Shown here: piece by piece, positions 11,537 to 35,459 of the stretch
Layout of the letters: each line of letters opens with the position of its first letter
How positions within the stretch are numbered: position 1 is the stretch's first letter
Source of the DNA: an uncultured Sphingopyxis sp.
GTDB lineage: Bacteria; Pseudomonadota; Alphaproteobacteria; Sphingomonadales; Sphingomonadaceae
NCBI GenBank assembly: GCA_964401155.1
Contig: CAYNXF010000004.1
Coordinates: 42,887-106,886, forward strand
Direction of reading: 5' to 3'
Length of the DNA stretch: 64,000 nt
The notes under the pieces: model-generated
What the model saw: only the letters and a program-made list of their open reading frames with translations
Databases searched by the model: none
What the model was told of the DNA's origin: nothing
Position numbers and translations under genes: made by a program

Positions 11537-13849
11537 ATGGCAAGCCAGCGGGCCGGAATGACACGCGTCGATTGGCGGACGACCTTCCGCCAGAGCATCG
11601 CGCGCATCAGTTGGCTGGCGGGCTCCGTGCTGATGTTTGCCTTTACCCTGTTTCTGCTCTTGGCGCTCGTAACCTATGACCCGCGCGACGATGCCATCCA
11701 CACAGCGGCAGGCGGGGCCAGCGCCAACTGGATGGGCGGCGCCGGGGCAATGGTTGCCGACGCGCTGTTGTTCACCGGCGGGATCGGAGCGGTGCTGCTG
11801 GTCCCGTTAACGGCCGTTTTTGCCGCGCGGATGTGGCGCGGCGACACGCAGCCCAGATGGAAACGCCAGCTTGTCATGCTGCTCGGCGGCGTGCTGCTGG
11901 TCGGGCTGGGGGCTGAGCTATGGTCACCCGCCAGCAATGCCGCGCTCCCGGCCGGATGGGGCGGGATTGTCGCGTTACTGGCCGGTCGCGAGGCGGCGCC
12001 GCTGTTCGACCTTATCGCCGCGCCCTGGGCCGCGCTGCTGCGTTTTGGGGTGATCCTGCTGCTCGCCGCGCTGGGGCTGTGGCTCGCGTGGCGCGCGCTG
12101 GCGCTGCCGAAGGATTGGGCGAGCGGCTGGTCGTGGGGCAGCGGCGATGCGCCTTTCATTGCCGACCGCGCGCCCGCGCTCGCTGGCGAAAGGCCCGCTT
12201 CGCTGGTCGCCAAGGTCATCCGCCCGCGTCCGCGCGCTGCTACCGAACCGCGCGCGCCGGTGGAAATCAGCGATCCGGTGCCGCGCAGTGCGCCTGCATC
12301 GCGTCCCAAACCCGCGCGCCAGACCGAGCTGTTCACCCAATATCAGCTGCCCTCGCTCGACCTGCTCGCGCCGCCGCCGCCGCGCCAGGGGGGCACCATC
12401 GACAAAGCCGCGCTGGAGCGCAACGCGCGCCTGCTTGAATCGGTGCTGGAAGATTTCCAGGTCAAAGGCGTCGTCACCGCCGTGCGCCCCGGCCCGGTCG
12501 TGACCATGTACGAACTCGAACCCGCGCCGGGCACCAAGGCGAGCCGCGTGTCAAACCTGGCTGACGATATCGCGCGCAACATGTCGGCTCTGTCGGCGCG
12601 CATTGCCCCCATTCCCGGGCGTACGGTGATCGGCATCGAGCTGCCCAATGCTAGGCGGGAGGCTGTCGTGCTCCACGAAATGATCGGCAGCGGCCTGTTC
12701 GCCGAACAGACCGGCCAGCTGCCTATCATCCTGGGCAAGAATATCAGCGGCGATCCGGTGATCGCCGACTTGGCGCCAATGCCGCACCTGCTGATCGCGG
12801 GGACGACGGGGTCGGGCAAGTCAGTGGGGCTTAATGCGATGATTTTGTCGCTGCTCTACCGGCTGGGTCCCGACAATTGCCGGATGATCCTGATCGACCC
12901 CAAGATGTTGGAACTCAGCGTCTATGACGGCATCCCGCATCTGCTGTCGCCGGTGGTGACCGAACCCAAAAAGGCGATCCGCGCATTGAAATGGGCGGTC
13001 GAGCAGATGGAGGATCGCTACCGCATGATGTCGTCGCTGTCGGTGCGTAACCTCGCCAGCTATAACGAGAAAGTGCGCGGCGCGCTTGCCAAGGGCAAGT
13101 CGCTCGGGCGGCGCGTGCAAACGGGCTATGACCCCGACACCGGCCAGCCGGTCTATGAGGAAGAGACGCTCGATTACCAGCCGCTGCCGCAGATTGTCGT
13201 GGTGGTTGACGAGCTCGCCGACCTGATGATGACCGCAGGCAAGGAAGTCGAGTTCCTGATCCAGCGCCTCGCACAAAAGGCGCGTGCAGCGGGGATCCAT
13301 TTGATCCTCGCGACGCAGCGCCCCTCGGTCGATGTCATCACCGGCGTGATCAAGGCGAACCTGCCGACGCGCATCTCGTTCAACGTCACCTCGAAAATCG
13401 ACAGTCGCACCATTTTGGGCGAGGCGGGGGCCGAACAGCTGCTGGGCAAGGGCGATATGCTATACGTCCCCGGCGGCAAACAGATTACGCGCATCCACGG
13501 CCCGTTCGTGTCGGATGACGAGGTGCGCGCGGTCGCCGACCATTGGCGCACGCAGGGCCAGCCCGATTATATCGAATCGGTGACCGAGGAGCCCGAGGAC
13601 GGCGGCTTTGCCCTCGACGGCGCCCCGGTGGGCGAGGACAGCGCCGAGGACCGCATCTACAGCAAGGCCAAGCAGATCGTGATCGAAAGCCAGAAAGCGT
13701 CGACCAGCTGGCTGCAGCGCCAGCTGCGCATCGGCTATAACAGCGCGGCGCGGCTGATCGACCGGCTGGAGGAGGACGGCATTATCGGTCCCCCCAATCA
13801 TGTCGGCCGGCGCGATGTGCTGGTCGACCGCAACGGGTTTCCACGATGA
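11537..13849 (+). CDS. ftsK: DNA translocase FtsK
   Basis: N-terminal TM helices, a Pro/Ala linker, the motor domain with Walker A LIAGTTGSGKSVGLN and ATQRPSVDVITG, and a C-terminal gamma wHTH (STSWLQRQLRIGYNSAARLIDRLE). Confidence 0.95.
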   Translation: MASQRAGMTRVDWRTTFRQSIARISWLAGSVLMFAFTLFLLLALVTYDPRDDAIHTAAGGASANWMGGAGAMVADALLFTGGIGAVLLVPLTAVFAARMWRGDTQPRWKRQLVMLLGGVLLVGLGAELWSPASNAALPAGWGGIVALLAGREAAPLFDLIAAPWAALLRFGVILLLAALGLWLAWRALALPKDWASGWSWGSGDAPFIADRAPALAGERPASLVAKVIRPRPRAATEPRAPVEISDPVPRSAPASRPKPARQTELFTQYQLPSLDLLAPPPPRQGGTIDKAALERNARLLESVLEDFQVKGVVTAVRPGPVVTMYELEPAPGTKASRVSNLADDIARNMSALSARIAPIPGRTVIGIELPNARREAVVLHEMIGSGLFAEQTGQLPIILGKNISGDPVIADLAPMPHLLIAGTTGSGKSVGLNAMILSLLYRLGPDNCRMILIDPKMLELSVYDGIPHLLSPVVTEPKKAIRALKWAVEQMEDRYRMMSSLSVRNLASYNEKVRGALAKGKSLGRRVQTGYDPDTGQPVYEEETLDYQPLPQIVVVVDELADLMMTAGKEVEFLIQRLAQKARAAGIHLILATQRPSVDVITGVIKANLPTRISFNVTSKIDSRTILGEAGAEQLLGKGDMLYVPGGKQITRIHGPFVSDDEVRAVADHWRTQGQPDYIESVTEEPEDGGFALDGAPVGEDSAEDRIYSKAKQIVIESQKASTSWLQRQLRIGYNSAARLIDRLEEDGIIGPPNHVGRRDVLVDRNGFPR

Positions 13850-15710: not shown

Positions 15711-16750
15711 CCGATACCGCTGCGCGCCGCGCCGCGCGCGGGGCCGACGCGCTGCGGCGCGGCTGGCCGGTGCGGATCGGCGGACTCGACCTGCTCGCGG
15801 TGGAAAGCGCCGATGACCGGGCGCTCGCGAATTTTGCCAGCGCCGACCTCATCCTCTCGGGCGAACGTGCGGCGACGCTGAAGCTCACCAACCAGCGCGC
15901 GGCAGCCGCGCCGGGGCCAGTGCGGCTTGCGGGCGCAGGCACCAGCGTCGCGGCTGCCCTTGCGATCGCCGACCCGGCGCTTGATTTGGCGCATCCGTTC
16001 AAGGGACCCTTTTCGACCGTACCCGTTGGGGACGAAGCCGCCGCCACTGCCGCAATCACGCTGGCCCGCCACATTGGCATTTTGCCCGCTGCCTTCGTGC
16101 GCGCCGCTGGGGGGATGGTTGAGGCCGAATTGGAAGCCGAGGATATTTCAGCCTTGCTGGATCCTGCCCGGCTGCGCATCGCGGCGCGCGCGCAGCTGCC
16201 GGTTGCCGCTGCCGAGACAAGTGAAATCGTCGCCTTCCGCTCGCCTGAGGAAGCGTCGGACCATGTCGCGCTGATCATCGGCCAACCCACCGCCGCGCCC
16301 CCCGTGGTCCGCTTGCACAGCGAATGTCTGACCGGCGACGTACTGGGCAGTCTGAAATGCGATTGCGGGCCGCAATTGCACGCCGCGCTCGCCGCCATGG
16401 CGGCGAACGACTGGGGCATCCTCCTCTATCTGCGGCAGGAGGGGCGCGGCATCGGCCTTGTCAACAAACTGCGCGCCTACGCCTTGCAGGATCAGGGGTT
16501 TGATACGGTCGATGCCAATATCCGGTTGGGCTTTCCGGTCGAGGCCCGCGACTTTGCTATCGCGGCGCAGATGCTCAAGCTGCTCGGACGCACCTACATC
16601 CGGCTGATGACCAACAACCCTGACAAGGTGGCGAGGCTGGTCTCCGAAGGCATCGACGTCACCGAGCGGTTACCGCTGGCGCTGCCGCCTAATCCGCACA
16701 ACGAACATTATCTGGCGACCAAACGCGACCGGACGGGCCACCAGCTTTAG
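15707..16750 (+). CDS. ribA: GTP cyclohydrolase II with N-terminal extension domain
   Basis: VRLHSECLTGDVLGSLKCDCGPQL and YLRQEGRGIGLVNKLRAYALQD. The probable TTG start at 15707 overlaps the xth stop; the longer track ORF would overlap xth. Confidence 0.85.
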   Translation: MTDTAARRAARGADALRRGWPVRIGGLDLLAVESADDRALANFASADLILSGERAATLKLTNQRAAAAPGPVRLAGAGTSVAAALAIADPALDLAHPFKGPFSTVPVGDEAAATAAITLARHIGILPAAFVRAAGGMVEAELEAEDISALLDPARLRIAARAQLPVAAAETSEIVAFRSPEEASDHVALIIGQPTAAPPVVRLHSECLTGDVLGSLKCDCGPQLHAALAAMAANDWGILLYLRQEGRGIGLVNKLRAYALQDQGFDTVDANIRLGFPVEARDFAIAAQMLKLLGRTYIRLMTNNPDKVARLVSEGIDVTERLPLALPPNPHNEHYLATKRDRTGHQL

Positions 16751-17550
16751 TGCACGAAGCGCGCCACTACGTCGCGATAGCTGCGCGACACTTTGACCTG
16801 CGCACCGGACCCCAACACCAGAAAACATTCTCCATTGGTGTGCGGCTTGACCTGTTTGACCTGACCCAAATTGACGATGGTCGACCGGTGGACGCGCTGG
16901 AAGTTTCTGGGATCAAGCCGCTTTTCCAGATCTTTCATCGTCTCGCGCAGAATTAGCGAATTGTCGGCGGTATAGATGCACATATAATCGCCGGCGGCAT
17001 CAATCCGCTCGATGCTGTCAACGTCGACGCGGAAAATCTGGCCGCGATCCTTGATGTTGATCAGCTTTTCATAGCGGTCCGCCGACGGCGCTTCGGCTGA
17101 AGGCTCGGACAGTGTATCGGCCACGTCGGGGGCGATTTCGGCGATCACCTCTTTAAGCCGCTCGACCTCGGCAGCGCCGCGCTTTTCCAAAAGACGCTGG
17201 CGCACCCGGTCGAGCGCGTCGGCCAGCCGTTCGGGTTCGACCGGCTTGACCAGATAATCGACCGCCTGCGCCTCGAAGGCGCGGATCGCATGGTCGCTAT
17301 AGGCGGTGACGAACACCACCAGCGGTGGTTCGACATCCATCAGCCCCTGCAACACCGAAAAGCCGTCAAAGCCCGGCATCTGGACGTCCAGAAAGACAAG
17401 GTCAGGCTTGTGCGTTTTGATTTTGCGAATGGCCTCGCGCCCGTTCTGGGCCGTGTCGACGATCTCGATGTCGGCGTGCGGTTCGAGCCGCAACTGCAAC
17501 CCCTGCACCGCCAGTTTTTCATCATCCACCAAAATGGTGCGTATGGTCAT
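16747..17550 (-). CDS. LytR/AlgR (LytTR DNA-binding) family response regulator
   Basis: Receiver domain (ILVDDE, DLVFLDVQMPGFDG, KP) plus a C-terminal LytTR domain (FQRVHRSTIVNLGQV). Confidence 0.9.
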   Translation of the reverse strand: MTIRTILVDDEKLAVQGLQLRLEPHADIEIVDTAQNGREAIRKIKTHKPDLVFLDVQMPGFDGFSVLQGLMDVEPPLVVFVTAYSDHAIRAFEAQAVDYLVKPVEPERLADALDRVRQRLLEKRGAAEVERLKEVIAEIAPDVADTLSEPSAEAPSADRYEKLINIKDRGQIFRVDVDSIERIDAAGDYMCIYTADNSLILRETMKDLEKRLDPRNFQRVHRSTIVNLGQVKQVKPHTNGECFLVLGSGAQVKVSRSYRDVVARFVH

Positions 17551-17582: not shown

Positions 17583-18686
17583 CTAGTCCGGTGCGGCCGC
17601 TTGATACGGAAATTCGATAACGACCAGAAAACCGCCTTCAGGTCCTGAACGCACATCAAACCGGCTGCGTTCCCCAAAAGCCTGTGCCAGCCGGTCGCGA
17701 ATATTAGCGAGGCCAACGCCGGTGGAATCTGTCGTCACCGGCAAAGTGGGCGCTGTTGGCACGGCTGACAATCCCGGGCCCGTGTCCGACACGCTGATCC
17801 GCACATTTTGACCGGCGAGCTGTGCCGTCACCGTGATGTCGGCCCCTTCCTCCTGCGGCGACACCGCATATTTGATGGCATTTTCGATTAATGGCTGCAG
17901 CAGCAGCGATGGCAGCCGCGCCTGCTCGGCCGCCGGATCGATGCTGAAATGCGGTCGCAGCCGCTCTTCGAAGCGCATTTTTTCGATCTCGAGATACAAT
18001 TTGAGCGTTTCGATTTCCTGCGCCAGCGTTACCTGCGCGGTTGGTTCATTCGCCAGCGTATAGCGCAGGAAAGAGGACAGCCGCGACAGCATGGCATTGG
18101 CGGGGCCCGTCTGCTTGAGCAGCACCAGCGTCGAAATGCTATTCAGCGTATTGAACAGGAAATGGGGGTTGAGCTGATAGCGCAGCATAGCGAGCTGCGC
18201 CGATGCGGCCTGCGCCTCAAGCCGCAGCATGCGATCCTGTTGCTCCTCCAGCTTCAGGAAATAATTGATGGCGTAATAGAGCGCCGACCACGCCGCGACC
18301 GACGTCGCGTCTATATAAAAGGCAGCCAGAAACAGGCTGGTGAAGCCAACCTCGCTTGCCGGATTCTGGATTTGCGCGATCCAGGCGTCGATAAAGGCCC
18401 AAAGCCCAGTCGCCAGCCCGGCCAAAAGGAACGACACGCTCCACATCCACAGCGGGCGCCGGTCGATCAGCTGGCCATAAAAGACCGACAGGATCAAAGT
18501 CAGCGAAAAACCGGTGACCGCCGATATCGTCTGCGGAATCAGAAAGCCGATGGGTTGGCCGGTGGCGAGCCCCGATACGCCGCGCAAACCCAGCCACGCC
18601 AACCAGCCCAACGTTTGTAGCCGCCAGAAGGCACGCACTTTGTCATCGAAGAAAGGGCCCTGATCGGAAAGCGCAAGCAGCGACAT
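17583..18686 (-). CDS. LytS-type sensor histidine kinase
   Basis: Multi-TM N-terminus, the His_kinase motif QLNPHFLFNTLNSIS and a GHKL ATPase (DTGPG, GVGLANIRDRL). Start taken at the internal ATG 18686. Confidence 0.85.
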   Translation of the reverse strand: MSLLALSDQGPFFDDKVRAFWRLQTLGWLAWLGLRGVSGLATGQPIGFLIPQTISAVTGFSLTLILSVFYGQLIDRRPLWMWSVSFLLAGLATGLWAFIDAWIAQIQNPASEVGFTSLFLAAFYIDATSVAAWSALYYAINYFLKLEEQQDRMLRLEAQAASAQLAMLRYQLNPHFLFNTLNSISTLVLLKQTGPANAMLSRLSSFLRYTLANEPTAQVTLAQEIETLKLYLEIEKMRFEERLRPHFSIDPAAEQARLPSLLLQPLIENAIKYAVSPQEEGADITVTAQLAGQNVRISVSDTGPGLSAVPTAPTLPVTTDSTGVGLANIRDRLAQAFGERSRFDVRSGPEGGFLVVIEFPYQAAAPD

Positions 18687-18732
18687 TGGTGAAGTCGGCG
18701 CGATGATCAGCTGCGGGCGCGGGCGCGGACGG

Positions 18733-19236
18733 TCATTCGGCCGCGATGACCAGTGGACGGGCGCTGCCCAGCGGTTGCAGTTCGGCGCGGTGCTTCCAGC
18801 ACAGCTCCTGATAGGCGAGCGCGCGGCCGTCATGCGCTTGCAGCGTCAGCGGCCGGATCGGCTGTTCGTCATGAATATCGACGAGCACTGGGGTCGAGGG
18901 CACGCCATCACCCCATTTTTCGCCCCATTGGCGCAGCGCGATCATCGCCGGCAGCAGGTCCATGCCCTTTTCCGTGAGGGCATAATGTACCTTGCGCCGA
19001 TCGCAGACCATCACCTGGCGCTCCAGCACGCCATGTTCGACCAGCCGCGCCAGCCGGTTGGACAAGATGTTGCGGGCAATGCCCAGCACTTGCTGAAATT
19101 CCTCGAAATGATGCACACCGTTGAAAGCGGCGCGCAAAATCATGAACGACCAGCGCTCGCCCATCGCCTCGAGCGCAACCGGCAGCGCGCAGTTCAGCCC
19201 TTCGGCTTCGCTCAATGGCTCGCGTAACTTTCCCAT
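18733..19236 (-). CDS. HxlR-family winged-helix transcriptional regulator
   Basis: CALPVALEAMGERWSFMILRAAFNGVHHFEEFQQVLGIARNILSNRLARLVEHGVLER. Start taken at ATG 19236. Confidence 0.85.
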   Translation of the reverse strand: MGKLREPLSEAEGLNCALPVALEAMGERWSFMILRAAFNGVHHFEEFQQVLGIARNILSNRLARLVEHGVLERQVMVCDRRKVHYALTEKGMDLLPAMIALRQWGEKWGDGVPSTPVLVDIHDEQPIRPLTLQAHDGRALAYQELCWKHRAELQPLGSARPLVIAAE

Positions 19237-22351: not shown

Positions 22352-22513
22352 CCCTCTCCCTCAGGGGAGAGGGCAGCGAGACCTGGTGGCTTTGCCACCT
22401 AGTCGCAGCGGAAAAGGGGATGGGCTCTCACGATAGTGCACACACCCTCACCCAGCTTCGCCTAGACAACAAGTTGCCAAGGCTGCGCAACCCTCTCCCA
22501 TGAAGGGAGAGGG
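22352..22513. repeat. pair of near-identical 9-bp-stem hairpins in direct orientation, flanking about 117 bp
   Basis: ccctctccc-tcag-gggagaggg (22352-22373) and ccctctccc-atgaa-gggagaggg (22491-22513). They sit in the convergent spacer between relA/spoT and the decahaem gene. Confidence 0.65.
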
Positions 22514-22520
22514 ACTAGAC

Positions 22521-25500
22521 TCAAGGCGCATCGCTCACCTTATACAGCAGCGACTGGCCGTCCTTTTGATAGAGGAACAGCGCTTCCATTTCCTTGCGCG
22601 TAAACGGCCGCGAGCCCAGCCGCCCGAACACCGCGATCTGGCCGCCGGTTTCATCGACGGCGCGGTCGCGGTCGAGGCCTTTGGACAGCGCCAGCGCGGC
22701 GCTGGGCGTTTTGGCCCAGGCAATCATTTCGGGCACCGGGCGCGGTGAGAAGCCATAGAAATTGGGCTGGCTCGACGGGCTGGTAAGCTGCAGGATTTTC
22801 ACCCCGTTGCGCCCGTCGGCGACATAGGCGAACAGCGAGGCGTTGGTGGTCGCGACCATCACATCCTCTACATCGTTCATCGTCCCGCCAAAGGTTAGCG
22901 ACGGCCAGACCTGCGGCGCGGCCGGGCGGGTGACATCGACGATGACCAAGCCATCTTGTTTGGCCGCGACATAAAGATAGGTGCGCGCGAGATAGAGTTT
23001 GCGCGCATTGGCGAGGCGGATGGTGCCCGCCGGGACCGCCACGGGTGCGCGCAAGTCGGTAACATCGAACAGCTTCACCCCGTCGGCGTCGGTGACCCAT
23101 AGATAACGGAACTGGATGGCGCTGGCGCGGGCATCGCTGAGCGGGATTTGCGCCGTTACGCGCGGCTCGAGCGGCTTGTCCAGATTGACCACCACCAGCC
23201 CGGCGTCGGTGGTGATATAGGCAATGGTCCCCGCCAGCGTGATGTGCCGCGCCCCGGCCAGGACATTGTCGGGATTCCAAGTCAGCGCGCGGGTCAGTTT
23301 GTTGTTACGGAACTCGCCATCGGCCAGCGTGTCGATATCGACCAGGATCAGCCCTTCGGCGGCATCGGTGATGATGGCGTAGCGATAAAGCTCGTGCATC
23401 GCCTGTTCCTGATTTTCGGGGAAGTTGGCGGTAATGTCGCGGTTTCGCTTGACCGAAATCGGCTGGGTGGTGCCGATGGCCATACAGGTGGCGTTGCTGG
23501 TCTTTACATGCGTGTCGTGCCCCAGCGCGCTGAACGGTGCGCGGACGATGCGTTCGGAAAAACCCTTGTTGCCGATGCTCGCGATATCATAGACGCGAAA
23601 ACCCCCGCGCCCTTCGGCCACGAACATATATTCGCCGCGCTGTTGCAGACAGTTCACCCGCCCGCTAGTGCCCTGCACGATATTGGCGAACTCCTCGAGC
23701 GCTTGGGTTTCACCCGAGAATTTCTTGTCGAACGTCTTGCCGCGCACCCAGTTTTTGAGCTCGCGACCATTCTGGTCGACGTGCAGCCGGTAATAGTCGG
23801 GATAGGCATAACGGTGGAGATAGCTGCCGATTACCGCCTGTGGTTCATCCCATTCGGTGACGCGGGTCGCTTGAAAACCGTCCTCCATGCCTGACCACAC
23901 GTTCAGCCCGACGAAGTTGACGAAATTGGTGCCAAGCAACAGCAGCTGCGACATGATGGCATTGTTGTCGTCGGCAGCCGACAGGTGGCAGTCGCTGCAC
24001 TGCTTGGTTTCTTGCAAGCGTACGGTGTGCGGGAAGTGCGGCGCGAACGCCTGTGAAGAATAGCCCGCCGAGGAAATTGGCGGCTGCTGGATATAGATGC
24101 GCTCGCGGTTGATGTTGGTCGACGACAGCACCAGCGCCGAGGTGGAGCGCACCGGCGCGATGATATTGCCCTTGGTCGTCTGGTGCCGCCCCAGCTGGAA
24201 CATTTCGTCGCGCGCGACCTGCGGATTATAGGTCGCGAAATTGCGCGACTGGTCGCCTTCGAAATGATGGCCCTTGGTTTTCCAATTGGCCTCGATCGGC
24301 AAATGGCAACCGCCGCAGCTGGTTGTCCAGGACAGGTGACAGGTGAAGCAGGTCAGCTTGTCATCGCCATGCGCACGCTCGGCGGCGGGGATGCTCGCGT
24401 CCCACGCGAATTCGCCATTGCCACTGTTCAGGCGCGCCATGAGCTTGGCGCGCGCCGCCTTGGCATTGAATTGCGGCGCGCCCTTGGTCACCGTTTGCTT
24501 GACCAGGCTGACCTGCCATTCGAGCTTGGGATCGACAATCGAGCGCTGGATCAGACCCACCGCGTTGCCGTCATCATCATACTGCCATTCAAAACGCCGC
24601 CGCCCGTCGGGGTTGCGCAACAGCGCCAAATTGGTCCCCTGAGGCCGCGCCGCGACGTTGGAGGTGAGCAAGTTCGGCAGCGCGTCGGCGGTACCGTGGC
24701 AATCTTTGCAGCCAATTTCGACGGCGTTCGCCACCTCGCCCTGAATATAGCCATTGCCATGGCTGTCCTGCGCGAAATGGCAATCGGCGCACTGCATGCC
24801 CTTTTCGGCGTGGATGTCCATCATATGCACGGTCTTGCCGGGGTTGAGGCCCGCGGGGACGAATTTGCCCTCGACCCCCGGCTTGTCGGGATCGGCATTA
24901 TCCTCGCACAACTTCACCTGCTCCGGCGTCGGCAGCAGTGCGCAGCGTTTGCGCCAACGTTCGGGATCGTCGGGCGAAACGATATTAGCGGTGTCGGTGC
25001 CATAGGTCGCCATATTGCCGTCGGCGTTCAACAAATTGCCGTTGCGGTCGCGCTTGAAAATGCCGCGGAAATTCCAGCCATGACCGTGATAATCGGCGAA
25101 CTGCGTGTCCTTGTTGGTCGGGTTGACGTCATAGACGTCGCGCAGGAATTCGACGTCACCCCACAGCCCCTTGGGTGCCGCAGCCTCCGGATTGCGTTGC
25201 AGGATCGCCAGCGTTTCCTTTGCGGTGGGATAGCGCTGCTCGCGATATTTCTTCGCGAACTCGGCGTCGCTCATCCCGGCGGGTTTGGGCAGCGTGTTCT
25301 CTGGCCCCGGCCACAGCTGCGGGGCGTCGGATTCATAGTCCCACATGGTATAGCCCAAATAGCTGTTCAGGAAGATATTGGGCTGGTGCATGTGGCAATT
25401 CATGCACTGCGCAGTCGGGATGGCGCGGGTGAAAGCATGCTGGATAGGGTGGCCCGATTCCTTGCGCTTGCCGCCTTTCGGATCGATCAGCGCGCCGTGC

Positions 25501-26753
25501 CCGCTGCCGTCCCAGCCATCACCCGCCTTGCCGTCACCGCCATGGTTGTCATTGCCGCCATGCGCGTCACCGTAACCGGGCTTGGCGCCGGGCAGCACCA
25601 TCTTGCCCTTGATTGTCGGGTCGACCGTCGCGGTCTGGCCGTCGCGGCCATATTGCGCCCAGGTCAGGCTGTGGCGCGGTTCGCGGTCGTTGGCATAGAC
25701 GACATGGCAGCTCGCGCAGCCCGACGAGCGATAGTCGCCCGGCTGGTCGTTGGTGCCCATAAACCACATGAAGGGATCGTTGAGCCGCGTCTTGTGGATG
25801 TTGAGCACCGGGATGGCGACGCGGATGCCGGTGCCAGGGCCACGGTTCGATTGTTTAAGGTCGGGTCGCCCCGGCTCCTCGAGCCGCTGGATGCTGCCGG
25901 TGGGGTTGGGGAGGCCGATTTCGGGGAACTGGGTGATGATGTTGCGCCCGCCGCGCTCGAACACGCGGAACACGTCGCCCGGCGGGATGACGGTCCAGTT
26001 GGGCAGCGGATACATTTTGCCCAGCGCGCCGCGCGCGCGTTCCTTGTCGGACAAAATCTTGTCGAAGGGGAAGGACGGATCGCACGCCTTGGCATATTCC
26101 TCTTTGGTCAGCGTGGTCGTCGGCGAGAGCAGGCAGGCGGGCTTGCCATCGCGCGTATAGGCCTCGCCCATGATGTAATTTTTCTGCTTGAGGATACCGT
26201 TGTTATAGGCCGCGCCGCCCCACAGCATCGCGCCCGTCGCCATGATCGAGCGTTCGGCCGCCTCGATCACCTCCAGATGGCACGACCCGCACGCCTCGCG
26301 CGCGACGCGGTAATCGCTGGGGTTGACGAAGCGGATGAACTCGGGCGCCTCGCGGTTGAGCAGCGTGTAACTGCGCTGCGGGTTGGCCGAAGTGCCGTGC
26401 CAGCTGGTGGGATAGGTCGGCTGGACATGGGCTTGGCGTTCGGCGGCCTTGTTGTCGGCATGGTCGTAGCCGAGCGCGGGGTTGCCGCGCACGCTGGCAT
26501 CGCCGCCGTGGCAATCGGTGCAGCCCAGCCGCACCGCGGGCGTCTTATGCATCGTCGGCTGGTCTGTCTGGACGTGGCAGCTGTAACAGCCGTCCGATTT
26601 CTCGGCCATTTGCGCCAATGTCTGCTCGCGCGGGGCGGGCGGGGTGAAGCGATAGACGACCTTGACCGGCTTTTCCTTCTCCGCCGCCTGCACCGCCACG
26701 GGTGCGGCAATCAGCGCGAGCAGGGCAAGGATGAGGCGGGTCAGCAGGCGCAT
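22521..26753 (-). CDS. secreted decahaem c-type cytochrome fused to a C-terminal LVIVD-repeat beta-propeller (1410 aa)
   Basis: Sec signal MRLLTRLILALLALIAAPVAVQA. Ten CxxCH motifs: CYSCH, CTDCH, CGSCH, CASCH, CMNCH, CADCH, CKDCH, CFTCH, CGGCH, CSDCH. Six LVIVD-like blades: GFRVYDI, GLILVDI, GLVVVNL, GVKLFDV, GLVIVDV, GVKILQL. ATG 26753 lies 2 nt after the upstream stop. Confidence 0.85.
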   Translation of the reverse strand: MRLLTRLILALLALIAAPVAVQAAEKEKPVKVVYRFTPPAPREQTLAQMAEKSDGCYSCHVQTDQPTMHKTPAVRLGCTDCHGGDASVRGNPALGYDHADNKAAERQAHVQPTYPTSWHGTSANPQRSYTLLNREAPEFIRFVNPSDYRVAREACGSCHLEVIEAAERSIMATGAMLWGGAAYNNGILKQKNYIMGEAYTRDGKPACLLSPTTTLTKEEYAKACDPSFPFDKILSDKERARGALGKMYPLPNWTVIPPGDVFRVFERGGRNIITQFPEIGLPNPTGSIQRLEEPGRPDLKQSNRGPGTGIRVAIPVLNIHKTRLNDPFMWFMGTNDQPGDYRSSGCASCHVVYANDREPRHSLTWAQYGRDGQTATVDPTIKGKMVLPGAKPGYGDAHGGNDNHGGDGKAGDGWDGSGHGALIDPKGGKRKESGHPIQHAFTRAIPTAQCMNCHMHQPNIFLNSYLGYTMWDYESDAPQLWPGPENTLPKPAGMSDAEFAKKYREQRYPTAKETLAILQRNPEAAAPKGLWGDVEFLRDVYDVNPTNKDTQFADYHGHGWNFRGIFKRDRNGNLLNADGNMATYGTDTANIVSPDDPERWRKRCALLPTPEQVKLCEDNADPDKPGVEGKFVPAGLNPGKTVHMMDIHAEKGMQCADCHFAQDSHGNGYIQGEVANAVEIGCKDCHGTADALPNLLTSNVAARPQGTNLALLRNPDGRRRFEWQYDDDGNAVGLIQRSIVDPKLEWQVSLVKQTVTKGAPQFNAKAARAKLMARLNSGNGEFAWDASIPAAERAHGDDKLTCFTCHLSWTTSCGGCHLPIEANWKTKGHHFEGDQSRNFATYNPQVARDEMFQLGRHQTTKGNIIAPVRSTSALVLSSTNINRERIYIQQPPISSAGYSSQAFAPHFPHTVRLQETKQCSDCHLSAADDNNAIMSQLLLLGTNFVNFVGLNVWSGMEDGFQATRVTEWDEPQAVIGSYLHRYAYPDYYRLHVDQNGRELKNWVRGKTFDKKFSGETQALEEFANIVQGTSGRVNCLQQRGEYMFVAEGRGGFRVYDIASIGNKGFSERIVRAPFSALGHDTHVKTSNATCMAIGTTQPISVKRNRDITANFPENQEQAMHELYRYAIITDAAEGLILVDIDTLADGEFRNNKLTRALTWNPDNVLAGARHITLAGTIAYITTDAGLVVVNLDKPLEPRVTAQIPLSDARASAIQFRYLWVTDADGVKLFDVTDLRAPVAVPAGTIRLANARKLYLARTYLYVAAKQDGLVIVDVTRPAAPQVWPSLTFGGTMNDVEDVMVATTNASLFAYVADGRNGVKILQLTSPSSQPNFYGFSPRPVPEMIAWAKTPSAALALSKGLDRDRAVDETGGQIAVFGRLGSRPFTRKEMEALFLYQKDGQSLLYKVSDAP

Positions 26754-26755
26754 CG

Positions 26756-28942
26756 TCAATAACTCAAGATGACATTGGCGAGGATGGAATAATAGGCATC
26801 GGTTTTGGGTTTCGAATCGAACAAATCCTTGAAGCCGCTGCCCGGAACGAAGGCGGCTGCTGACAGCCGCCCGACGATATTCTGCATCGCCTTGGGCCGC
26901 CAGATCGCAGCGACCGACACGTCCCAGCCGATATCTTTGGGGATCGACCCTTCGGTGCGCAGCGCCTGCAGCACCGAGGTATCTTCGAACCACAGATGGT
27001 TGAGGTTGAAGCTGACCCGCGTCTGCGGCGAGAAATCAAGGTCTGCGCCCGCGCCGACAAACATGGTGCCGGGGTTATTGAAATTGGACTGGCCCTGTTC
27101 CTTCGACGAGCGCAGGCTGTTCAATATGCCGTTGCGGCCATTAACGCCAATGACGCGCCCGCCGCCCGCAAAGGGAATGGTCTGGCGGATCCAGTAGCTG
27201 GTGTCGGCCCCGCCAAAGATGGGGTTTTCGAAAATGGCGTCGAACCCGCCCTCGGTATTGTTATAGGGGTCGCTGTCGCCGGTGGCATAAAGCGCCGACA
27301 GTCGGAAACGCAGCCAGTCGGTGTCATAGCTGAGTTCGGCAGCGGCAAAGCCAGCCCGAATTTTGGCGGCGCGGCTGGTGAACAAGCTGTTCCGGTCCTC
27401 GCCCAGCACGCCATAAAGGCTGGCGGTCACATTGATCCGCCCGATACGGCCATCGGCGTTGTAACCGATATAATAGGCGTCATAGTTGCGCCCGCGCAGA
27501 TCGCCGAGCAGCGCGGGACGCACCGGAAAACCGTTGGTATCAATCTCGACGTCGCTCGCCTCGCGGTTGAGGTTAGCCACCGCAGTGATCTGGCTGGTCA
27601 GCCCGACGAAGGGGAAATCCTGGCGATAGACATTGGCGATAAAGACATAATCCTCACGCGGCGTCTGCACTACCGAGTTGAGGCCCGAATTGGTGTCCTT
27701 TTCCAGCCGCCAGAAGGCGGCAAGATTATATTGGAAGCGGTTGTTGTCGCGGTTGCCGAACAGGCGCACGCCCAATTGGCTGTCGTTGAACAGGAAACCC
27801 CGAAAATCCGACTGGAAGGGCTGGATGCCCAGCCGGATCGAGTGGAAATCATAACGGTCGCTGTCGTCGCGCAAATGTTTGTCGATGAAGAGTTCCTGCA
27901 CGCCCAGAAAATGGTCGAGGCGGTCCGATTTCTTTGACGGCTGGACAAACAGCACGCGCCGTTCGGGCACGTCGACATAGTTGATGTTGTAGGCGAGCGT
28001 CAGCCGATATTCGACATCGGGCGGCTTGAACGCGGTCATCCCCTTGATAAGCGCGATGCCGCTGATGAAGGTTTGCGACAACACCAGGCTGGGGTTGCGC
28101 CCGAACACATCGAGGCTGCCGGGCCGTTCGGTCGTCTGCACGCCCACAGGGATAGGAAAGGTGCGCGGCTCGACCACCGTGTCGCTGACTGCGCTGACCA
28201 CAAAAAACCAGTCAGGGCTTTCGAGGCCGAGGAATTTTGGCGTGGCGCATTTGGGGATGCTCGCCGCCTTGCGCTTCGCCTGCTCTTCGTCGGTGGGGAT
28301 GCAGATCGGCCGGTCGCCTTTCAGGAGATTCTGGTTATAGGGGTCGAACCAGCGTTCCTTCACAATGCCGAGCGACTCAATAAGCCGCCAGCGGTCGGGC
28401 ACCGGCAGCTGGTTTTCCATCAGCGGAAACGCCGAGGGCGGCGGCGGGCGCAGCGCGCCGGGGTTATCCTGCGTCACTTGGGGCGGCAGATCGGGACGAT
28501 AGCCGGGGCGGCGGCGGCCTTCGATAATCTGGGTCACCAGATCGCCCGACAATTGATCCTGCCAGTTAATCGGTGGCGGCGGCGGCGTGAGCTCTTCGGC
28601 CCCGGGTTCTGCCACTTTTTCCGGATCATCGGGCGCGATGTGGGCAGGCGCGGCGTCGCCGGGTTCGGCGTGCTGCGCGGCACCGGCCGTCAGGAAAGCG
28701 TCGGCCAAGCGGGGCAGTTCCAACTGGACGGGGGGCAGTTCGGGGCGACGCTGCGGCAAGGCGGAGCGGGTGGGGTCCGGCTTCGCCAGAAAATCTTCCA
28801 TCGCCTGCACATCTTGCGCGAGCGGAAAGACGCTGGCCCCGTTGAGCAGCGAAGCCGTCAGCGGCACGATGGCAACCACGACGCTCACAGCCCGTCGCAG
28901 ACATTCTGCGCCGCGGTATCCAGGAAGGGCGCAAAGGGGCAA
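26756..28942 (-). CDS. predicted outer-membrane beta-barrel protein with Pro-rich N-terminal region
   Basis: Signal-like RRAVSVVVAIVPLTASLLNGASVFPLAQ, PPPPP tracts, then alternating hydrophobic strand patterns, ending in the aromatic terminus ANVILSY. The alternative GTG start at 28888 overlaps the upstream stop (GTGA). Confidence 0.65.
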   Translation of the reverse strand: MPLCALPGYRGAECLRRAVSVVVAIVPLTASLLNGASVFPLAQDVQAMEDFLAKPDPTRSALPQRRPELPPVQLELPRLADAFLTAGAAQHAEPGDAAPAHIAPDDPEKVAEPGAEELTPPPPPINWQDQLSGDLVTQIIEGRRRPGYRPDLPPQVTQDNPGALRPPPPSAFPLMENQLPVPDRWRLIESLGIVKERWFDPYNQNLLKGDRPICIPTDEEQAKRKAASIPKCATPKFLGLESPDWFFVVSAVSDTVVEPRTFPIPVGVQTTERPGSLDVFGRNPSLVLSQTFISGIALIKGMTAFKPPDVEYRLTLAYNINYVDVPERRVLFVQPSKKSDRLDHFLGVQELFIDKHLRDDSDRYDFHSIRLGIQPFQSDFRGFLFNDSQLGVRLFGNRDNNRFQYNLAAFWRLEKDTNSGLNSVVQTPREDYVFIANVYRQDFPFVGLTSQITAVANLNREASDVEIDTNGFPVRPALLGDLRGRNYDAYYIGYNADGRIGRINVTASLYGVLGEDRNSLFTSRAAKIRAGFAAAELSYDTDWLRFRLSALYATGDSDPYNNTEGGFDAIFENPIFGGADTSYWIRQTIPFAGGGRVIGVNGRNGILNSLRSSKEQGQSNFNNPGTMFVGAGADLDFSPQTRVSFNLNHLWFEDTSVLQALRTEGSIPKDIGWDVSVAAIWRPKAMQNIVGRLSAAAFVPGSGFKDLFDSKPKTDAYYSILANVILSY

Positions 28943-30846
28943 CTAACATAGCGCAGGCGGACGGTGCGATTGTCGGCGAGCGTCACGATGATGCGGTCAG
29001 CGCGGATGGCGAGCGGGGCATTGCCGATGCCGCCAACGCGCGCGCCGGCATTGTGCGTGCCCAGAAAGCTGATCATGTCGTCCTGATCGATGCCGTCGCC
29101 CGACACGCCAATCGCGCCGACCAGCCGATTGCCGCGATAGACGGGCACCGATCCCGGGAAAATCTGGATGCCATTGTGCAGCCGGTTCTGCGCGGGTGCG
29201 ACATCGGGCAGCGTGGTGCAGCGCTGCGGCGTATCGGGCCCCAGCCCCAGCACAAAGCCCAGATGCTGGCCGATATTGCCGATCACCAGCGCCGATTGCA
29301 GGCCGGTCGAGAAGGGATTGAACTGCGCGATGGGGCGCGACAGCGGACCATTGGGGCGGCCCACTTCACCATCGGGGAAATAGGGCCGCGCGATATTGCC
29401 GACCGAGCGATTGCCATAGGCGAAGGTGCCGGTTAGCGCCGACTGGTCATTCAGAAACGCCCGCGTTGCCGTCACCATGGCCGCAACGTCGGCACTGCCG
29501 CTCGCGGCGAGTTCGGCCCCCGCATTGGGGTGCGCAAAGAAATTCGCGGTGCGCGCCTTCTGCAGGGATACGTCGATCCCGAAAATCGGGGCGTCGGGTG
29601 ATCGCACCTGCCCAAGCACCGCGCCGTGCGTATCAACGAGGCTGATCGTCACCTGCGCGCGGCTGTCGAGCGGGCGGCGGATCTGGGCGCGCGCGCGGCT
29701 CATTACCGTGAAGGCTTCTTCCAGGATGGCGCGCGATTCGGCGAGCGTCAGCGGGGTGGGGTTGCTCGCCGCGTCGGTTCCGCCGCGCAGCGGGAAGCGC
29801 GCAGCGCCACTGCCGTTGGTGAGCAGAAAGGCGTCGCGGTTCGAAAATTCGGCCGCGGTGGAGGCACGGATGCCCGAAGCTTCGCTGCCATAGGCAGTGC
29901 CAGCAAGGATTGTCGCCGCCGCATATCCGGTCACCGCAACCAGCGTTCCGGCGGGTCCGTTCAGCGTCGCAAAGGCAGGCGCGCTGGTGGTGCTAAGCCC
30001 GGCGACGGTGGCGTCGGAAAAGCGCAAGCTGGTGCCATCGACGGTAATCCGGTCGGCGCGGATGTCGGTGGGTGCGTCAAAGCCGCGGGTACCAGCGAGC
30101 GCGATAAATTCTTCCGCGTCATTGTCGACGTCAAGGATATTGGGGTCCGAGCCATAGACGCCATCGGCCATCACCCCAACCCCGCCGACCAGCACGCCAT
30201 TTTTGTACAGCGGCAACCCGCCGGGGTCCGCCGCCAGCCCCAGCGGCGAACGCTTGGGGCCTGTCAGCGCCGCTGCGCCCGCTGCGCCAAAACGCTGGTT
30301 CAGGTCCGAACAGGGCAGCTGGCTGAACTGCACCCCGAACAAGGGCCCGCTTTCGAGACCCACGGTCGTCGGCGCGGGCGGGAAATGTTCCTGCACAATC
30401 TGGCTGGCCGTGCGCGTGGAAAAGGCGTTGCCGCCGCTCGACAGATAGGCCCCGGTAATCGCCTTGGCGATGGCTCCCGCCTCGGCCGGGAAGGTGACAT
30501 TCTGCGCGTCGATATTCGCGCCATTGGCTGCAGCGCTGCTGGTCGCATTGGCGCGGGCGCCGGTCATGCGGAACACGGCGAGCACATTGCCGACGCGGTC
30601 GGTGACGGCGATGACGGCGGGCAGGCTGCGCGCCTGCGCCTCCGCAATGCTCTGCGCCAAAACCCGCTCGACATCGGCCACGCTCAGCGATTCGGCGGCA
30701 GGAACCGAAAAGAGGTTGCCCGCAGGCGGCGGGGTGGGCGTCGGCGTGGGCACCACCGGCGGCGCGCTGCCGCCGCCCCCGCCGCAGGATGCAAGCAGTA
30801 AGGCCGCAATGGTCGTGGCAGATGTCAGGGGTCGCCTTTTCTGCAT
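28885..30846 (-). CDS. lipoprotein with two GlcG/HbpS (DUF336, haem-binding-type) domains
   Basis: Lipobox LLLAS-C, Gly5 and a PT linker. Unit 1: LSVADVERVL...AVIAVTDRVGNVLAVF...LYKNGVLVGGVGVMADG. Unit 2: LTLAESRAIL...ISLVDTHGAVLG...VYRGNRLVGAIGVSGDGIDQDD. Each unit is followed by IRADRI(T/I)V. Confidence 0.7.
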   Translation of the reverse strand: MQKRRPLTSATTIAALLLASCGGGGGSAPPVVPTPTPTPPPAGNLFSVPAAESLSVADVERVLAQSIAEAQARSLPAVIAVTDRVGNVLAVFRMTGARANATSSAAANGANIDAQNVTFPAEAGAIAKAITGAYLSSGGNAFSTRTASQIVQEHFPPAPTTVGLESGPLFGVQFSQLPCSDLNQRFGAAGAAALTGPKRSPLGLAADPGGLPLYKNGVLVGGVGVMADGVYGSDPNILDVDNDAEEFIALAGTRGFDAPTDIRADRITVDGTSLRFSDATVAGLSTTSAPAFATLNGPAGTLVAVTGYAAATILAGTAYGSEASGIRASTAAEFSNRDAFLLTNGSGAARFPLRGGTDAASNPTPLTLAESRAILEEAFTVMSRARAQIRRPLDSRAQVTISLVDTHGAVLGQVRSPDAPIFGIDVSLQKARTANFFAHPNAGAELAASGSADVAAMVTATRAFLNDQSALTGTFAYGNRSVGNIARPYFPDGEVGRPNGPLSRPIAQFNPFSTGLQSALVIGNIGQHLGFVLGLGPDTPQRCTTLPDVAPAQNRLHNGIQIFPGSVPVYRGNRLVGAIGVSGDGIDQDDMISFLGTHNAGARVGGIGNAPLAIRADRIIVTLADNRTVRLRYVSCPFAPFLDTAAQNVCDGL

Positions 30847-33845: not shown

Positions 33846-34772
33846 ATGGCAGAAAGTGGCGGAATTTCGCGGATAAATCTGGCAATGCTGGCGATTGCTG
33901 CCGCCGTGTTGGCCGGGGCCATCGCCTATAGCCAGTGGGACAAGGGCGGCGACACGCCGAATCCTGCACCAACGGGCGCCGCCGCGAATCCGGCCGACTC
34001 GCTCGCCGCGCTCGAGGCTGCCGCGCGCGCCAACCCGCAAAGCGTCGATGCCTGGCAGACGCTGGGCGCGGCGCTGTTCGACACAGGGCGCTTTGCCGAT
34101 GCGGCGCAGGCGTTTGAAAAGGCCGTCGCGATCGCTCCGCAAACCGCCGTGCTTTGGTCGGCACTGGGCGAAGCAAGAGTTATGGCGAGCGAGCGCGACC
34201 CGATGCCGCCGCCTGCGCTGGAGGCTTTTCGCAAGGCCGCTTCAATCGACCCCAAAGACCCGCGCACGCGCTATTTTCTCGCCGTCAAACGCGACATTGA
34301 CGGCGACCACCAGGGCGCAATCAACGACTGGCTGGCGCTGCTGGCCGACACGCCTGCCGGAGCGCCATGGGAAGCAGACCTGCGGCGCACCATCGAACAG
34401 GTCGGGCAAATCCACAAAATCGAAGTCGCCAGCCGGCTCGCCGCCACCAAGCCGCGCGCGCTGACCGCCGAAGAGTTGCCCGTCGCCGCGCGTGCCATCC
34501 CCGGCCCCAGCCGCGCCGACATGGAGGCTGCGAGCCAGCTGCCCAAGGGCCAGCAAGACGCGATGATCAATTCGATGGTCGAGGGGCTGGAGGCCAAACT
34601 CAAAACCAACCCCACCAATGTCGACGGCTGGATCATGCTGATGCGCAGCCGCATGACGCTGGGCGAAACCGCCAAGGCCAGCGCGGCGCTGAAAAATGCG
34701 ATTGCAGCCAATCCGGGTGCGGCAGCGCGGTTGCGCGCGCAGGCCGAGCTGCTGGGTGTGCCGGGGGCTTAA
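33846..34772 (+). CDS. CcmI/CycH-like TPR protein (c-type cytochrome biogenesis accessory)
   Basis: N-terminal TM helix. TPR stretch ANPQSVDAWQTLGAALFDTGRFADAAQAFEKAV. DPRTRYFLAVKRDIDGDHQGAINDWLALL is typical of the CcmI C-terminal module. Confidence 0.6.
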   Translation: MAESGGISRINLAMLAIAAAVLAGAIAYSQWDKGGDTPNPAPTGAAANPADSLAALEAAARANPQSVDAWQTLGAALFDTGRFADAAQAFEKAVAIAPQTAVLWSALGEARVMASERDPMPPPALEAFRKAASIDPKDPRTRYFLAVKRDIDGDHQGAINDWLALLADTPAGAPWEADLRRTIEQVGQIHKIEVASRLAATKPRALTAEELPVAARAIPGPSRADMEAASQLPKGQQDAMINSMVEGLEAKLKTNPTNVDGWIMLMRSRMTLGETAKASAALKNAIAANPGAAARLRAQAELLGVPGA

Positions 34773-34775
34773 ACA

Positions 34776-35459
34776 ATGAAGGAACGGTTTATGCAATTTT
34801 TCCGGACAAGCGCAGCGGTAATGCTGATCTCCTGTTTGATGCCATCCCCAGCATGGGCCGCCGAATTTCAGTTCACCGTCGGTGACCAGTTGCTGACCTT
34901 GCCATTGCCGACGGGATATTGTTTGCCGGCCAACCGCGATAAGCAAATCGCGGACCTTGTTGCTGCTGGCGACACCGCAAACGTCACGCACACGATGTTC
35001 ATTCGATGCGAGCGGGCAGGGAACAACAAGGGACCCGGCAATGACTATATCATTATTAAGACGCCCTTATCAGCGGTCAGCGCTGTCGTAGAGCGTGATG
35101 AACTGTTGGCTGAACTAGCCACGGAGTTCGGGAAAGCGAATTGGCAAAATGGGGATGTTGCCAAGGAAATAGATAAAGAGAGCGAAGCAGGGCTTTCCCG
35201 TGTCTTGGGCACCTCGATAGCGATTGAGGGTGAATTTGGACCACGCGGGGCAGACGCCGAGTGCGCCTATCTTGGCGGATCGGTTAACGTCAGCGGCGCA
35301 GGCGTAAGCTATCCGGTCATCACAGGAAGCTGCATCACCTCGGCGGCTGGCAAGGTCGTGGTAGTCCACACTTATGACGACCCAGGCAAAGGTGGCGGGG
35401 TCGAAGGCAAGATGCGCTTTGCAAAGTCCATCGCCCTGACAATCAACAAGGCGCCCTAA
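34776..35459 (+). CDS. hypothetical secreted protein
   Basis: Signal peptide AVMLISCLMPSPAWA-AE. No recognisable motif. It starts 3 nt after the CcmI-like gene and is visibly richer in A/T-ending codons than its neighbours. Confidence 0.5.
   Translation: MKERFMQFFRTSAAVMLISCLMPSPAWAAEFQFTVGDQLLTLPLPTGYCLPANRDKQIADLVAAGDTANVTHTMFIRCERAGNNKGPGNDYIIIKTPLSAVSAVVERDELLAELATEFGKANWQNGDVAKEIDKESEAGLSRVLGTSIAIEGEFGPRGADAECAYLGGSVNVSGAGVSYPVITGSCITSAAGKVVVVHTYDDPGKGGGVEGKMRFAKSIALTINKAP

Follow-up and report, generated by a model that had tools for sequence, protein, structure and literature searches.

A decahaem cytochrome fused to an LVIVD beta-propeller and its conserved operon: a candidate redox module of the outer membrane in Sphingopyxis and its relatives

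The nearest described counterpart of the locus analyzed here is PCC4, one of the porin-cytochrome complexes (PCC) of He, Barco, Emerson & Roden (2017, PMC5566968), a cluster from organisms that include Hyphomicrobium and Zetaproteobacteria, which has been predicted only and never characterized. In PCC4, a porin gene lies beside genes for multihaem cytochromes of the periplasm, which carry 4, 5 and 10 haem sites, and the cluster further includes an inner-membrane protein of ~300 amino acids (aa) with five transmembrane (TM) helices, two W-x3-H-x13-H motifs and an SGxxG motif, as well as a pfam13247 Fe-S protein. The PCC3/PCC4 inner-membrane protein was likened to the dihaem TM domain of ferric reductases and NOX, and Fe(II)/Mn(II) oxidation was proposed as the function of PCC4 (PMC5566968). 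Here we describe a four-gene operon, A-B-C-D, on a 64,000-nt stretch of contig CAYNXF010000004.1 from an uncultured Sphingopyxis sp. (this whole stretch is the window, and all positions refer to it). The last gene, D, encodes a decahaem c-type cytochrome that is covalently fused to an LVIVD beta-propeller. We propose, at about an even chance, that A-B-C-D forms an electron-transfer module associated with the outer membrane, with D as its terminal redox subunit.

The likeness to PCC4 is one of description rather than of proven homology. The haem counts in D-type loci are 5, 10 and 10, compared with 4, 5 and 10 in PCC4, and Planctomycetota are present both in the PCC4 set and in the D family, where they provide one intermediate representative. 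However, the description of PCC4 includes neither a propeller nor an HbpS-like protein, and both the PCC4-type inner-membrane protein and the Fe-S gene are absent from the window by tblastn.

The MtrCAB, MtoAB and PioAB systems likewise have an outer-membrane barrel encoded beside decahaem cytochromes and link periplasmic carriers to the outer membrane, as A-B-C-D might. The differences are considerable: the MtrB-type sheath has 26 strands compared with 18 in the model of C, MtrA has ~33 aa per haem compared with ~92 in the haem part of D, and MtrC is a lipoprotein with the MtrC/OmcA fold, whereas D lacks a lipobox and scores insignificantly against that family. The Geobacter cluster ExtHIJKLMNOPQS combines the 12-haem ExtM, the small porin-like barrel ExtI and further multihaem cytochromes with an inner-membrane redox module of the Rieske/cytochrome b type, and differs from A-B-C-D in having no propeller or HbpS-like protein; the porin of the Ext cluster has been implicated in selenite/tellurite reduction (PMC5877670). 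Multihaem cytochromes and propellers are functionally linked in one cluster of Desulfovibrio ferrophilus (DFE_0451/0452/0463; PMC8322314), and a separate NHL-type propeller belongs to a cluster for extracellular electron transfer (EET) in 'Ca. Tenderia' (UetH/UetI; bioRxiv 10.1101/2022.05.06.490989). In such EET islands, cytochrome and propeller are separate proteins, whereas the LVIVD propeller is fused to the cytochrome in every D-family member examined. A c-type haem domain joined to a beta-propeller is familiar from NirS (cd1), the alpha subunit of hydrazine synthase and the quinohaemoprotein dehydrogenases, which have one or two c haems and whose propellers carry the cofactor or active site (d1 haem, PQQ or haem). 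The propeller of D differs from these in having no conserved His or Cys, and no homology of D to these enzymes was detected in Pfam, NCBIfam and PDB searches.

The fused protein and its relatives

An earlier note on this stretch, made from the letters and a list of open reading frames, had read D as a 1410-aa exported protein with ten CxxCH motifs and six LVIVD blades, and our analysis bears out each of these points. The open frame spans 1490 codons on the minus strand (22521..26993), a strand that the note had not given, and the ATG at 26753 yields the 1410-aa product, the N-terminus of which (MRLLTRLILALLALIAAPVAVQA, followed after cleavage by AEKEK) is a Sec-type signal. A re-scan placed the first Cys of the CxxCH motifs at exactly the residues listed in the note, namely C56, 78, 155, 346, 450, 655, 682, 802, 813 and 919; together, the motifs take up 20 of the 26 Cys residues of the protein. 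The same scan of the 1410 aa revealed no CxxCK, Cx3CH or Cx4CH motif, and no motif with a long spacer such as Cx15CH. Shuffling D 20,000 times gave a mean of 0.012 CxxCH motifs and a maximum of 2. With its many CxxCH motifs in a Sec-exported protein, D classifies by sequence as a multihaem c-type cytochrome with ten predicted sites of haem attachment. The idea of a lipid anchor on D was dropped, a lipobox-like string being found in only 14 of 254 relatives and being doubtful in most of these.

All six blade cores were located: GFRVYDI (residue 1051), GLILVDI (1134), GLVVVNL (1185), GVKLFDV (1225), GLVIVDV (1268) and GVKILQL (1317). The Pfam LVIVD model (PF08309) matches the whole of D with an E value of 1.2e-10 (41 bits, cut-off 20.2) and the C-terminal 410 aa with 1.1e-13 (50.7 bits). 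A profile built from the six blades, which serves as a consistency check and not as independent evidence, recovered residues 1029-1070, 1112-1152, 1164-1204, 1204-1244, 1246-1287 and 1295-1336 and no further blade. These tandem repeats of ~42 aa, scoring above the family cut-off, assign D to the LVIVD family and predict a closed propeller fold. The number of blades may nevertheless be seven, because blades 1 and 2 are 83 aa apart and additional beta strands occur at ~951-964. As the alignment of relatives contains no conserved His or Cys in the propeller, this domain carries no His- or Cys-ligated metal centre.

Among 5.8 billion proteins searched, more than 7,600 matched D. The best 120 of these are co-linear with D, 1340-1490 aa long and 67-100% identical, and they come from Sphingopyxis (the closest, 90%), Sphingobium, Novosphingobium, Blastomonas, Qipengyuania, Allosphingosinicella and others; in the databases they are labeled only "hypothetical", "LVIVD repeat-containing protein" or "multiheme c-type cytochrome". 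These closest matches point to a Sphingopyxis-like alphaproteobacterium as the source of the window. An exhaustive cluster search with residues 1-1000 as the query yielded 2,751 clusters (50% identity level) at E <= 0.001 and 539 at E <= 1e-30. Full-length relatives with 40-50% identity retain 8-10 CxxCH motifs detectable by regular expression together with the LVIVD repeats, and a second search that started from one of them reached Acidobacteriota/Thermoanaerobaculia, KSB1, Nitrospirota and Wallbacteria, in all cases with PF08309. Across phyla, the identity is 40-46% over about 1200-1400 aa. Such values are high for multihaem wires. When one genome of each GTDB species was scanned, at least 598 species carried a relative of D, and the host genomes are mostly those of aerobic heterotrophs. 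One metagenomic relative, P0143 (1648 aa), contains 28 CxxCH motifs, with an N-terminal extension harboring 18 extra haems that precedes the decahaem-plus-LVIVD core.

In the alignment of 254 full-length relatives, each of the ten haem sites is retained in 97-100% of the sequences. Some relatives had seemed to have nine haems, with the third one lost, but in this larger alignment the site is present in 252 of the 254. The near-invariant residues outside the motifs include R149, R263, R304, K321, D326, D340, R342, Y353 and Y842, and the outstanding conserved block lies near haem 4 (KTRLNDP...GTNDQPGDYRSSGC.SCHVVYANDR). PF08309 is annotated on essentially all full-length matches. Judged by these comparisons, the decahaem-LVIVD fusion is genuine and under strong selection.

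That two unrelated genes were joined by a frameshift or an assembly error, or that the frame is a decaying pseudogene, is hardly conceivable, and nothing that would speak for it turned up. The note had pointed to the junction as a place where such an error could lie, and had considered split orthologues and a loss of CxxCH motifs in close homologues as further signs against a real fusion. Instead, many isolate genomes and metagenome-assembled genomes (MAGs) encode co-linear homologues of 1340-1490 aa, no split cytochrome and propeller orthologues were seen among the full-length matches, and the architecture, including the haem sites, persists at 40-50% identity in other phyla. Moreover, a protein identical to D (P0001) is on record on a 184-kb contig, and the GC content at third codon positions (0.79) is similar to that of the adjacent genes. 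The statement of the note that this architecture is not known from characterized proteins also stands: literature searches found no characterized member of the family and no paper on a decahaem-plus-LVIVD architecture, and PMC11475568 mentions neither propellers nor sphingomonads. Sequences of the D family are already public, apparently with neither a name nor a paper or solved structure attached to them.

The haem domain: relay modules or an enzyme

AlphaFold2 (AF2) modeling of residues 24-1010, on an alignment of 72 diverse relatives, gave one compact body for the haem domain, with a predicted local distance difference test score (pLDDT) of 79 and a predicted template modeling score (pTM) of 0.84. 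The model includes a beta-rich region at residues ~720-965 and low-confidence inserts at residues 261-311 and 392-427. No fold match in the PDB was found by Foldseek at E <= 0.001, so that an experimental structure of D would probably reveal a new multihaem architecture; it would probably also provide the first functional context for an LVIVD propeller. The second of the inserts (window 25482-25589), between haems 4 and 5, is a Gly/Asp/His-rich low-complexity segment (PGYGDAHGGNDNHGGDGKAGDGWDGSGHGALIDPKG) that could be a flexible metal-binding loop or a plain linker.

The earlier note had read the wide spacing of the haems as enzyme-like. This argument is weak. The haem part (residues 24-940) has 91.7 aa per haem, which is within the typical multihaem range of 60-70 +/- 30 aa per haem (PMC5566968), and ~87 residues of the large inter-haem gaps belong to the low-confidence inserts; the value of 139 aa per haem for mature D arises from including the length of the propeller. 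In addition, twelve His residues outside the motifs are conserved (H69, 109, 435, 439, 456, 556, 558, 643, 648, 665, 795 and 909), as are M68 and M171, and the alignment suggests that these fourteen residues could suffice as distal ligands for all ten haems.

Sequence searches of the PDB, with the single sequence and with a profile, gave marginal local matches only, with E values of 0.016-0.3 for the NrfA/HAO/OTR/MccA class. Residues of about 45-160, with the first three haems, weakly resemble ActA of alternative complex III (E 0.007) and NrfB (E 0.012), and residues of about 637-690 weakly resemble the last two haems of NrfA (haems 4/5; E 0.016-0.15). The conserved M68-H69 of D aligns with an MH of NrfB, the histidine of which we take to be the likely distal ligand in that protein, and the matched segment of NrfA is presumably its electron-transfer end and not its active site. 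Neither the active-site motif of NrfA nor a global fold match accompanies these local likenesses. Matches confined to single modules suggest that D consists of ordinary electron-transfer haem modules that are set in a large scaffold without a known relative.

Two NrfA models score 15.2 and 11.5 bits against D (cut-offs 595 and 692), and the best NCBIfam match is ExtM (NF040943) with 67.7 bits (E 6e-19, cut-off 800). The MtrC/OmcA model PF22113 reaches 9.6 bits (E 0.82, cut-off 30), TIGR03507 (MtrC/OmcA) is not among the NCBIfam matches of D, and TIGR03508 (MtrA/DmsE) reaches 9.2 bits (cut-off 192). Membership in several families was considered and rejected on these grounds: MtrC/OmcA because of the failed models, the missing lipobox and the missing Foldseek match, MtrA/DmsE because of the low score and the sparse haems, NrfA/HAO/OTR/MccA because of scores below the cut-offs and the missing fold match, and orthology to ExtM because of its distance from the cut-off.

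These results bear on a different explanation of D, namely a stand-alone periplasmic enzyme of the NrfA/HAO/OTR/MccA class in which one haem with open coordination acts on a small oxyanion of N, S or Se. Such an enzyme would account for the large ordered non-haem regions of the model and for the invariant Arg, Lys, Tyr and Asp residues around haem 4, and would fit the weak match to NrfA haems 4/5 and the channel-type barrel encoded alongside; ExtM, the best NCBIfam match, is itself from a selenite/tellurite-linked Geobacter operon (PMC5877670). Yet CxxCK and other atypical motifs are missing, all ten motifs being canonical, and the conserved His and Met residues would be enough for ten six-coordinate haems. 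The scores for NrfA and ExtM are far below the respective cut-offs, Foldseek finds no match in the PDB despite the high pTM, and the similarity to NrfA concerns the electron-transfer end. On balance, we consider a stand-alone enzyme of this class distinctly improbable. The enzyme-like character proposed in the note is supported in part, by the compact model, the invariant non-haem residues, the 40-46% identity across phyla along the entire protein and the channel-type barrel encoded beside D; no family or fold match to NrfA, HAO, OTR or MccA was found.

The operon, its predicted barrel and the distant loci

D is the last gene of the tightly packed operon A-B-C-D (Table 1). The spacing between A and B is 10 nt, B and C are joined by a GTGA stop/start overlap, and C and D are separated by 2 nt; the start codon of C is uncertain, the candidate being the GTG that overlaps the stop codon of B. 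The pattern of four CxxCH and one Cx4CH motif in A is retained in 57 of 61 homologues, which indicates that A is a pentahaem cytochrome. In tblastn searches with A, B and C, the order A-B-C-D was conserved in nearly all of ~80 alphaproteobacterial loci, wherever the contig was long enough, whereas the flanks differ between loci, and gdhA and relA/spoT adjoin the operon only in Sphingopyxis. Two Rhodospirillaceae MAGs have A downstream, on the opposite strand, and B-C-D is present in the one acidobacterial locus among the fetched loci. With a predicted barrel gene adjoining a multihaem cytochrome gene in conserved synteny, the operon belongs to the porin-cytochrome type in the broad sense.

The barrel C matched no sequence profile of Pfam, NCBIfam or the PDB. 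More than 7,600 homologues of C are on record. Each of 77 compared here has Y or F as its last residue, preceded by residues of alternating hydrophobicity, as is typical of the beta-signal of outer-membrane proteins. Pfam searches with 18 homologues gave a single marginal match to Alginate_exp (E 0.048), and some UniRef records name homologues "alginate export domain-containing". The AF2 model, built on a shallow alignment of 30 Sphingopyxis sequences, shows a disordered Pro-rich N-terminus followed by 18 long antiparallel strands, at low confidence (pLDDT 50, pTM 0.50), and Foldseek places AlgE first (E 6e-10, TM ~0.5), with OprD/Occ, MOMP and chitoporins next, all of them substrate channels of about 16-18 strands that form monomers or trimers. 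On present evidence, C is therefore predicted to be an outer-membrane barrel of the channel type rather than of the 26-strand MtrB type; sheathing a cytochrome would need ~20-26 strands or more. Two distant homologues, in loci L085 (7725-9980) and L086 (6973-8979), carry an N-terminal AMIN domain in place of the Pro-rich extension, and this replacement suggests a tethering role in the periplasm for the N-terminus of C.

Six distant loci, L083 to L088, were compared with the window. The gene order in L087 and L088 is flavoprotein/FeS protein, membrane protein, FHA-decahaem-FHA protein, B, C, D and A. D of L087 is 46% identical to D of the window, the C homologues of the two loci are 38-40% identical to C (E 7e-123 and 1e-114), and the A homologues match A with E values of about 1e-39 (1.5e-39). 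The first gene of L087 encodes a protein of about 790 aa with Pyr_redox_2/3, cNMP_binding (two stretches) and 4Fe-4S domains, and the gene list of L088 contains the same families; the decahaem protein of both loci, about 750 aa long, is flanked by FHA domains. Such cytoplasmic-type domains around a decahaem cytochrome are an unusual architecture in themselves. L083 and L084 encode a cNMP_binding plus 4Fe-4S protein without the flavoprotein part, which is DmsB/NrfC-like in L083, and in both an A-like cytochrome adjoins D. A cytochrome with ten CxxCH motifs lies beside the D region in L083, L084 and L087, and that of L083 begins with a hydrophobic segment that probably spans the membrane. A C homologue is directly upstream of D in L083, L085 and L086, while the gene upstream of D in L084, which is incomplete at the contig end, does not match C. 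L085 and L086 have the order C homologue with AMIN domain, D, monohaem cytochrome, decahaem cytochrome.

With ~275-280 aa and about five TM segments, the membrane proteins of L083, L084, L087 and L088 each contain H-x13-H twice. A W-x3 prefix precedes both copies except in L083, where one prefix is absent, and SGxxG is found in all but the L084 protein, so that the PCC4-like membrane signature is complete in L087 and L088. According to their domain content, the genes of the distant loci would form a chain from a cytoplasmic flavoprotein of the pyridine-nucleotide type via FeS centres, two b haems that bridge the inner membrane and periplasmic multihaem cytochromes to A and D. This content suggests an outward flow of electrons, with D on the reductase end.

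Gene anatomy, conservation, operon synteny and family assignments are observed, whereas the following account of D, from its haem loading and its place in the cell to its substrate, a catalytic role and the way its electrons flow, is inferred. As a large, soluble, Sec-exported protein, D would be part of a module positioned between the periplasm and the outer membrane, in which A would shuttle electrons between an electron-transport system of the inner membrane and D. Inside D, the N-terminal NrfB/ActA-like triad, the NrfA haem-4/5-like pair and the doubled CxxCH pair, all putative standard bis-His modules, might pass the electrons on to a site made up of the conserved non-haem blocks and/or the propeller, where D would reduce or oxidize a substrate that either comes through the channel C or stays bound at the outer membrane. 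C would act as a substrate channel or a docking partner and not as an MtrB-type sheath, and B might be an HbpS-like accessory that possibly binds a tetrapyrrole or iron, in analogy to HbpS. In other phyla, B-C-D-A would receive its electrons from a cytoplasmic flavoprotein/FeS protein of the NAD(P)H type, together with a dihaem-b membrane protein and a decahaem cytochrome of the membrane. The window itself has no such inner-membrane genes, and therefore A would here have to connect to the general respiratory chain.

Several observations weigh against the proposal of a terminal redox subunit. We found no characterized homologue of D, and FNR, FixK, Fur or Irr boxes were not detected upstream of A in any of 57 loci. 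The membrane protein and the Fe-S gene of the distant loci have no counterpart in the window, as mentioned above, and the strand count of C could be wrong, as the model is of low confidence and based on a shallow alignment. Other points both weigh against the proposal and favor a classic conduit of the PCC type: a barrel beside multihaem cytochromes is also a hallmark of conduits across the outer membrane, the relative P0143 with its 18 extra haems fits a wire-like role, and LVIVD repeats were originally defined in proteins of the cell surface (PMC2447325).

In such a conduit, C would be the sheath, A or part of D would span the outer membrane, and D would be on the surface, with its propeller touching minerals; electrons would be exchanged with insoluble Fe/Mn phases or humics, with the system either reducing these or oxidizing Fe(II)/Mn(II). 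In addition to the points just listed, the PCC3/PCC4 signature of the distant membrane protein (PMC5566968), the pfam13247-type Fe-S protein beside distant homologues and the recurrence of separate 6-/7-bladed propellers in EET clusters (PMC8322314; bioRxiv 10.1101/2022.05.06.490989) speak for this explanation. On the other side, C is modeled, if only at low confidence, as an AlgE/OprD-type channel and not as a sheath, D has no lipid anchor and no secretion genes were seen next to A-B-C-D, and D fails the MtrC/OmcA and MtrA/DmsE models. The haems of D are far more widely spaced than those of MtrA or of the PCC3 wires (22-39 aa per haem; PMC5566968), its conservation across phyla is high, and its hosts are mostly aerobic heterotrophs. 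Taken together, we regard such a conduit as somewhat unlikely. PCC3 itself was rejected as a counterpart, its cytochromes having tens of haems at the density just given and its porins up to 42 strands (PMC5566968).

A wider interpretation, which we consider unlikely but worth stating, is that A-B-C-D is the outer part of an unrecognized electron-export system of several phyla and that D is an oxidoreductase with a new fold at the outer membrane of aerobic heterotrophs such as sphingomonads, Caulobacterales and Erythrobacteraceae. In loci with the complete set, electrons would pass from cytoplasmic NAD(P)H to the flavoprotein/FeS protein, on to the dihaem-b membrane protein and the periplasmic cytochromes, and finally to D. 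If so, reductive mobilization of Fe/Mn or removal of an external oxidant would be possible roles; C would serve as a channel dedicated to this task, and B, the HbpS-like lipoprotein, would be a partner that binds a tetrapyrrole or iron.

In soil, freshwater and seawater, sphingomonads, Erythrobacteraceae and Caulobacterales are abundant; these aerobic heterotrophs are not regarded as electroactive. The occurrence of a strictly conserved, outer-membrane-linked decahaem operon in at least 598 species, in addition to thousands of metagenomic proteins, implies a common envelope redox activity without a name. If D exchanges electrons with iron, manganese, humics or oxyanions, the attribution of metal and redox cycling in oxic environments would be altered. 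The family is large, occurs in common aerobic heterotrophs and is directly testable in cultured strains, many of which are genetically accessible and offer a tractable test case; cultured hosts include Sphingopyxis terrae, S. macrogoltabida, Blastomonas sp. RAC04 and Qipengyuania flava.

Features and surroundings of the operon

Table 1. Positions of the operon genes, of the parts of D and of associated features; coordinates refer to the window unless a distant locus is named.
Feature	Coordinates	Strand	Basis or remarks
Gene A, secreted c554-like cytochrome, about 474 aa	30857..32281	-	4 CxxCH + 1 Cx4CH
Gene B, 653-aa lipoprotein with repeated HbpS-like/GlcG domains	28885..30846	-	LLASC lipobox, poly-Gly linker, PF03928 5.8e-22
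Gene C, predicted outer-membrane beta-barrel, about 710 aa, Pro-rich N-terminal extension	26756..28888	-	Model and Foldseek
Gene D, 1410-aa decahaem c-type cytochrome + LVIVD beta-propeller	22521..26753	-	Stop codon 22521-22523
D, Sec-type signal peptide, residues 1-23	26685..26753	-	Cleavage after AVQA; no lipobox
D, haem domain, residues 24-940	23934..26684	-	Ten CxxCH; AF2 model, sequence, alignment
D, LVIVD beta-propeller, residues 1029-1336	22746..23669	-	Six recognizable blades, possibly a seventh
D, conserved C-terminal tail, residues 1337-1410	22524..22745	-	Motif GLDRDRAVDE.G.Q..VFGR.GSRPF
Two identical hairpins just downstream of D	22352-22373 and 22491-22513		9-bp stems (CCCTCTCCC / GGGAGAGGG), 140 nt apart
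Inner-membrane/cytoplasmic module beside D homologues	L087:2-5313, L088:1-5242, L083:15628-19765, L084:7928-11783		

The twin hairpins are located in the gap between the convergent genes relA/spoT and D and are likely to be the terminators of both; alternatively, they may be copies of a small palindromic repeat element. At ~1.6 kb from the start of A, beyond gdhA, a TPR protein (33846-34772, plus strand) has a CcmH/CycH-type TPR domain of cytochrome c biogenesis (PF23914, 1.3e-16). A LytTR-type response regulator (16747-17550) and a His_kinase/HATPase sensor (17583-18833) are encoded on the minus strand ~3.7 kb downstream of D, and this pair is not conserved beside the operon in other genera. 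Ordinary housekeeping or metabolic genes in the vicinity encode a PutA-type proline dehydrogenase/aldehyde dehydrogenase (35456-38725, minus strand), an RPE65-family carotenoid oxygenase (5563-7059, minus strand) and FtsK (11537-13849, plus strand).

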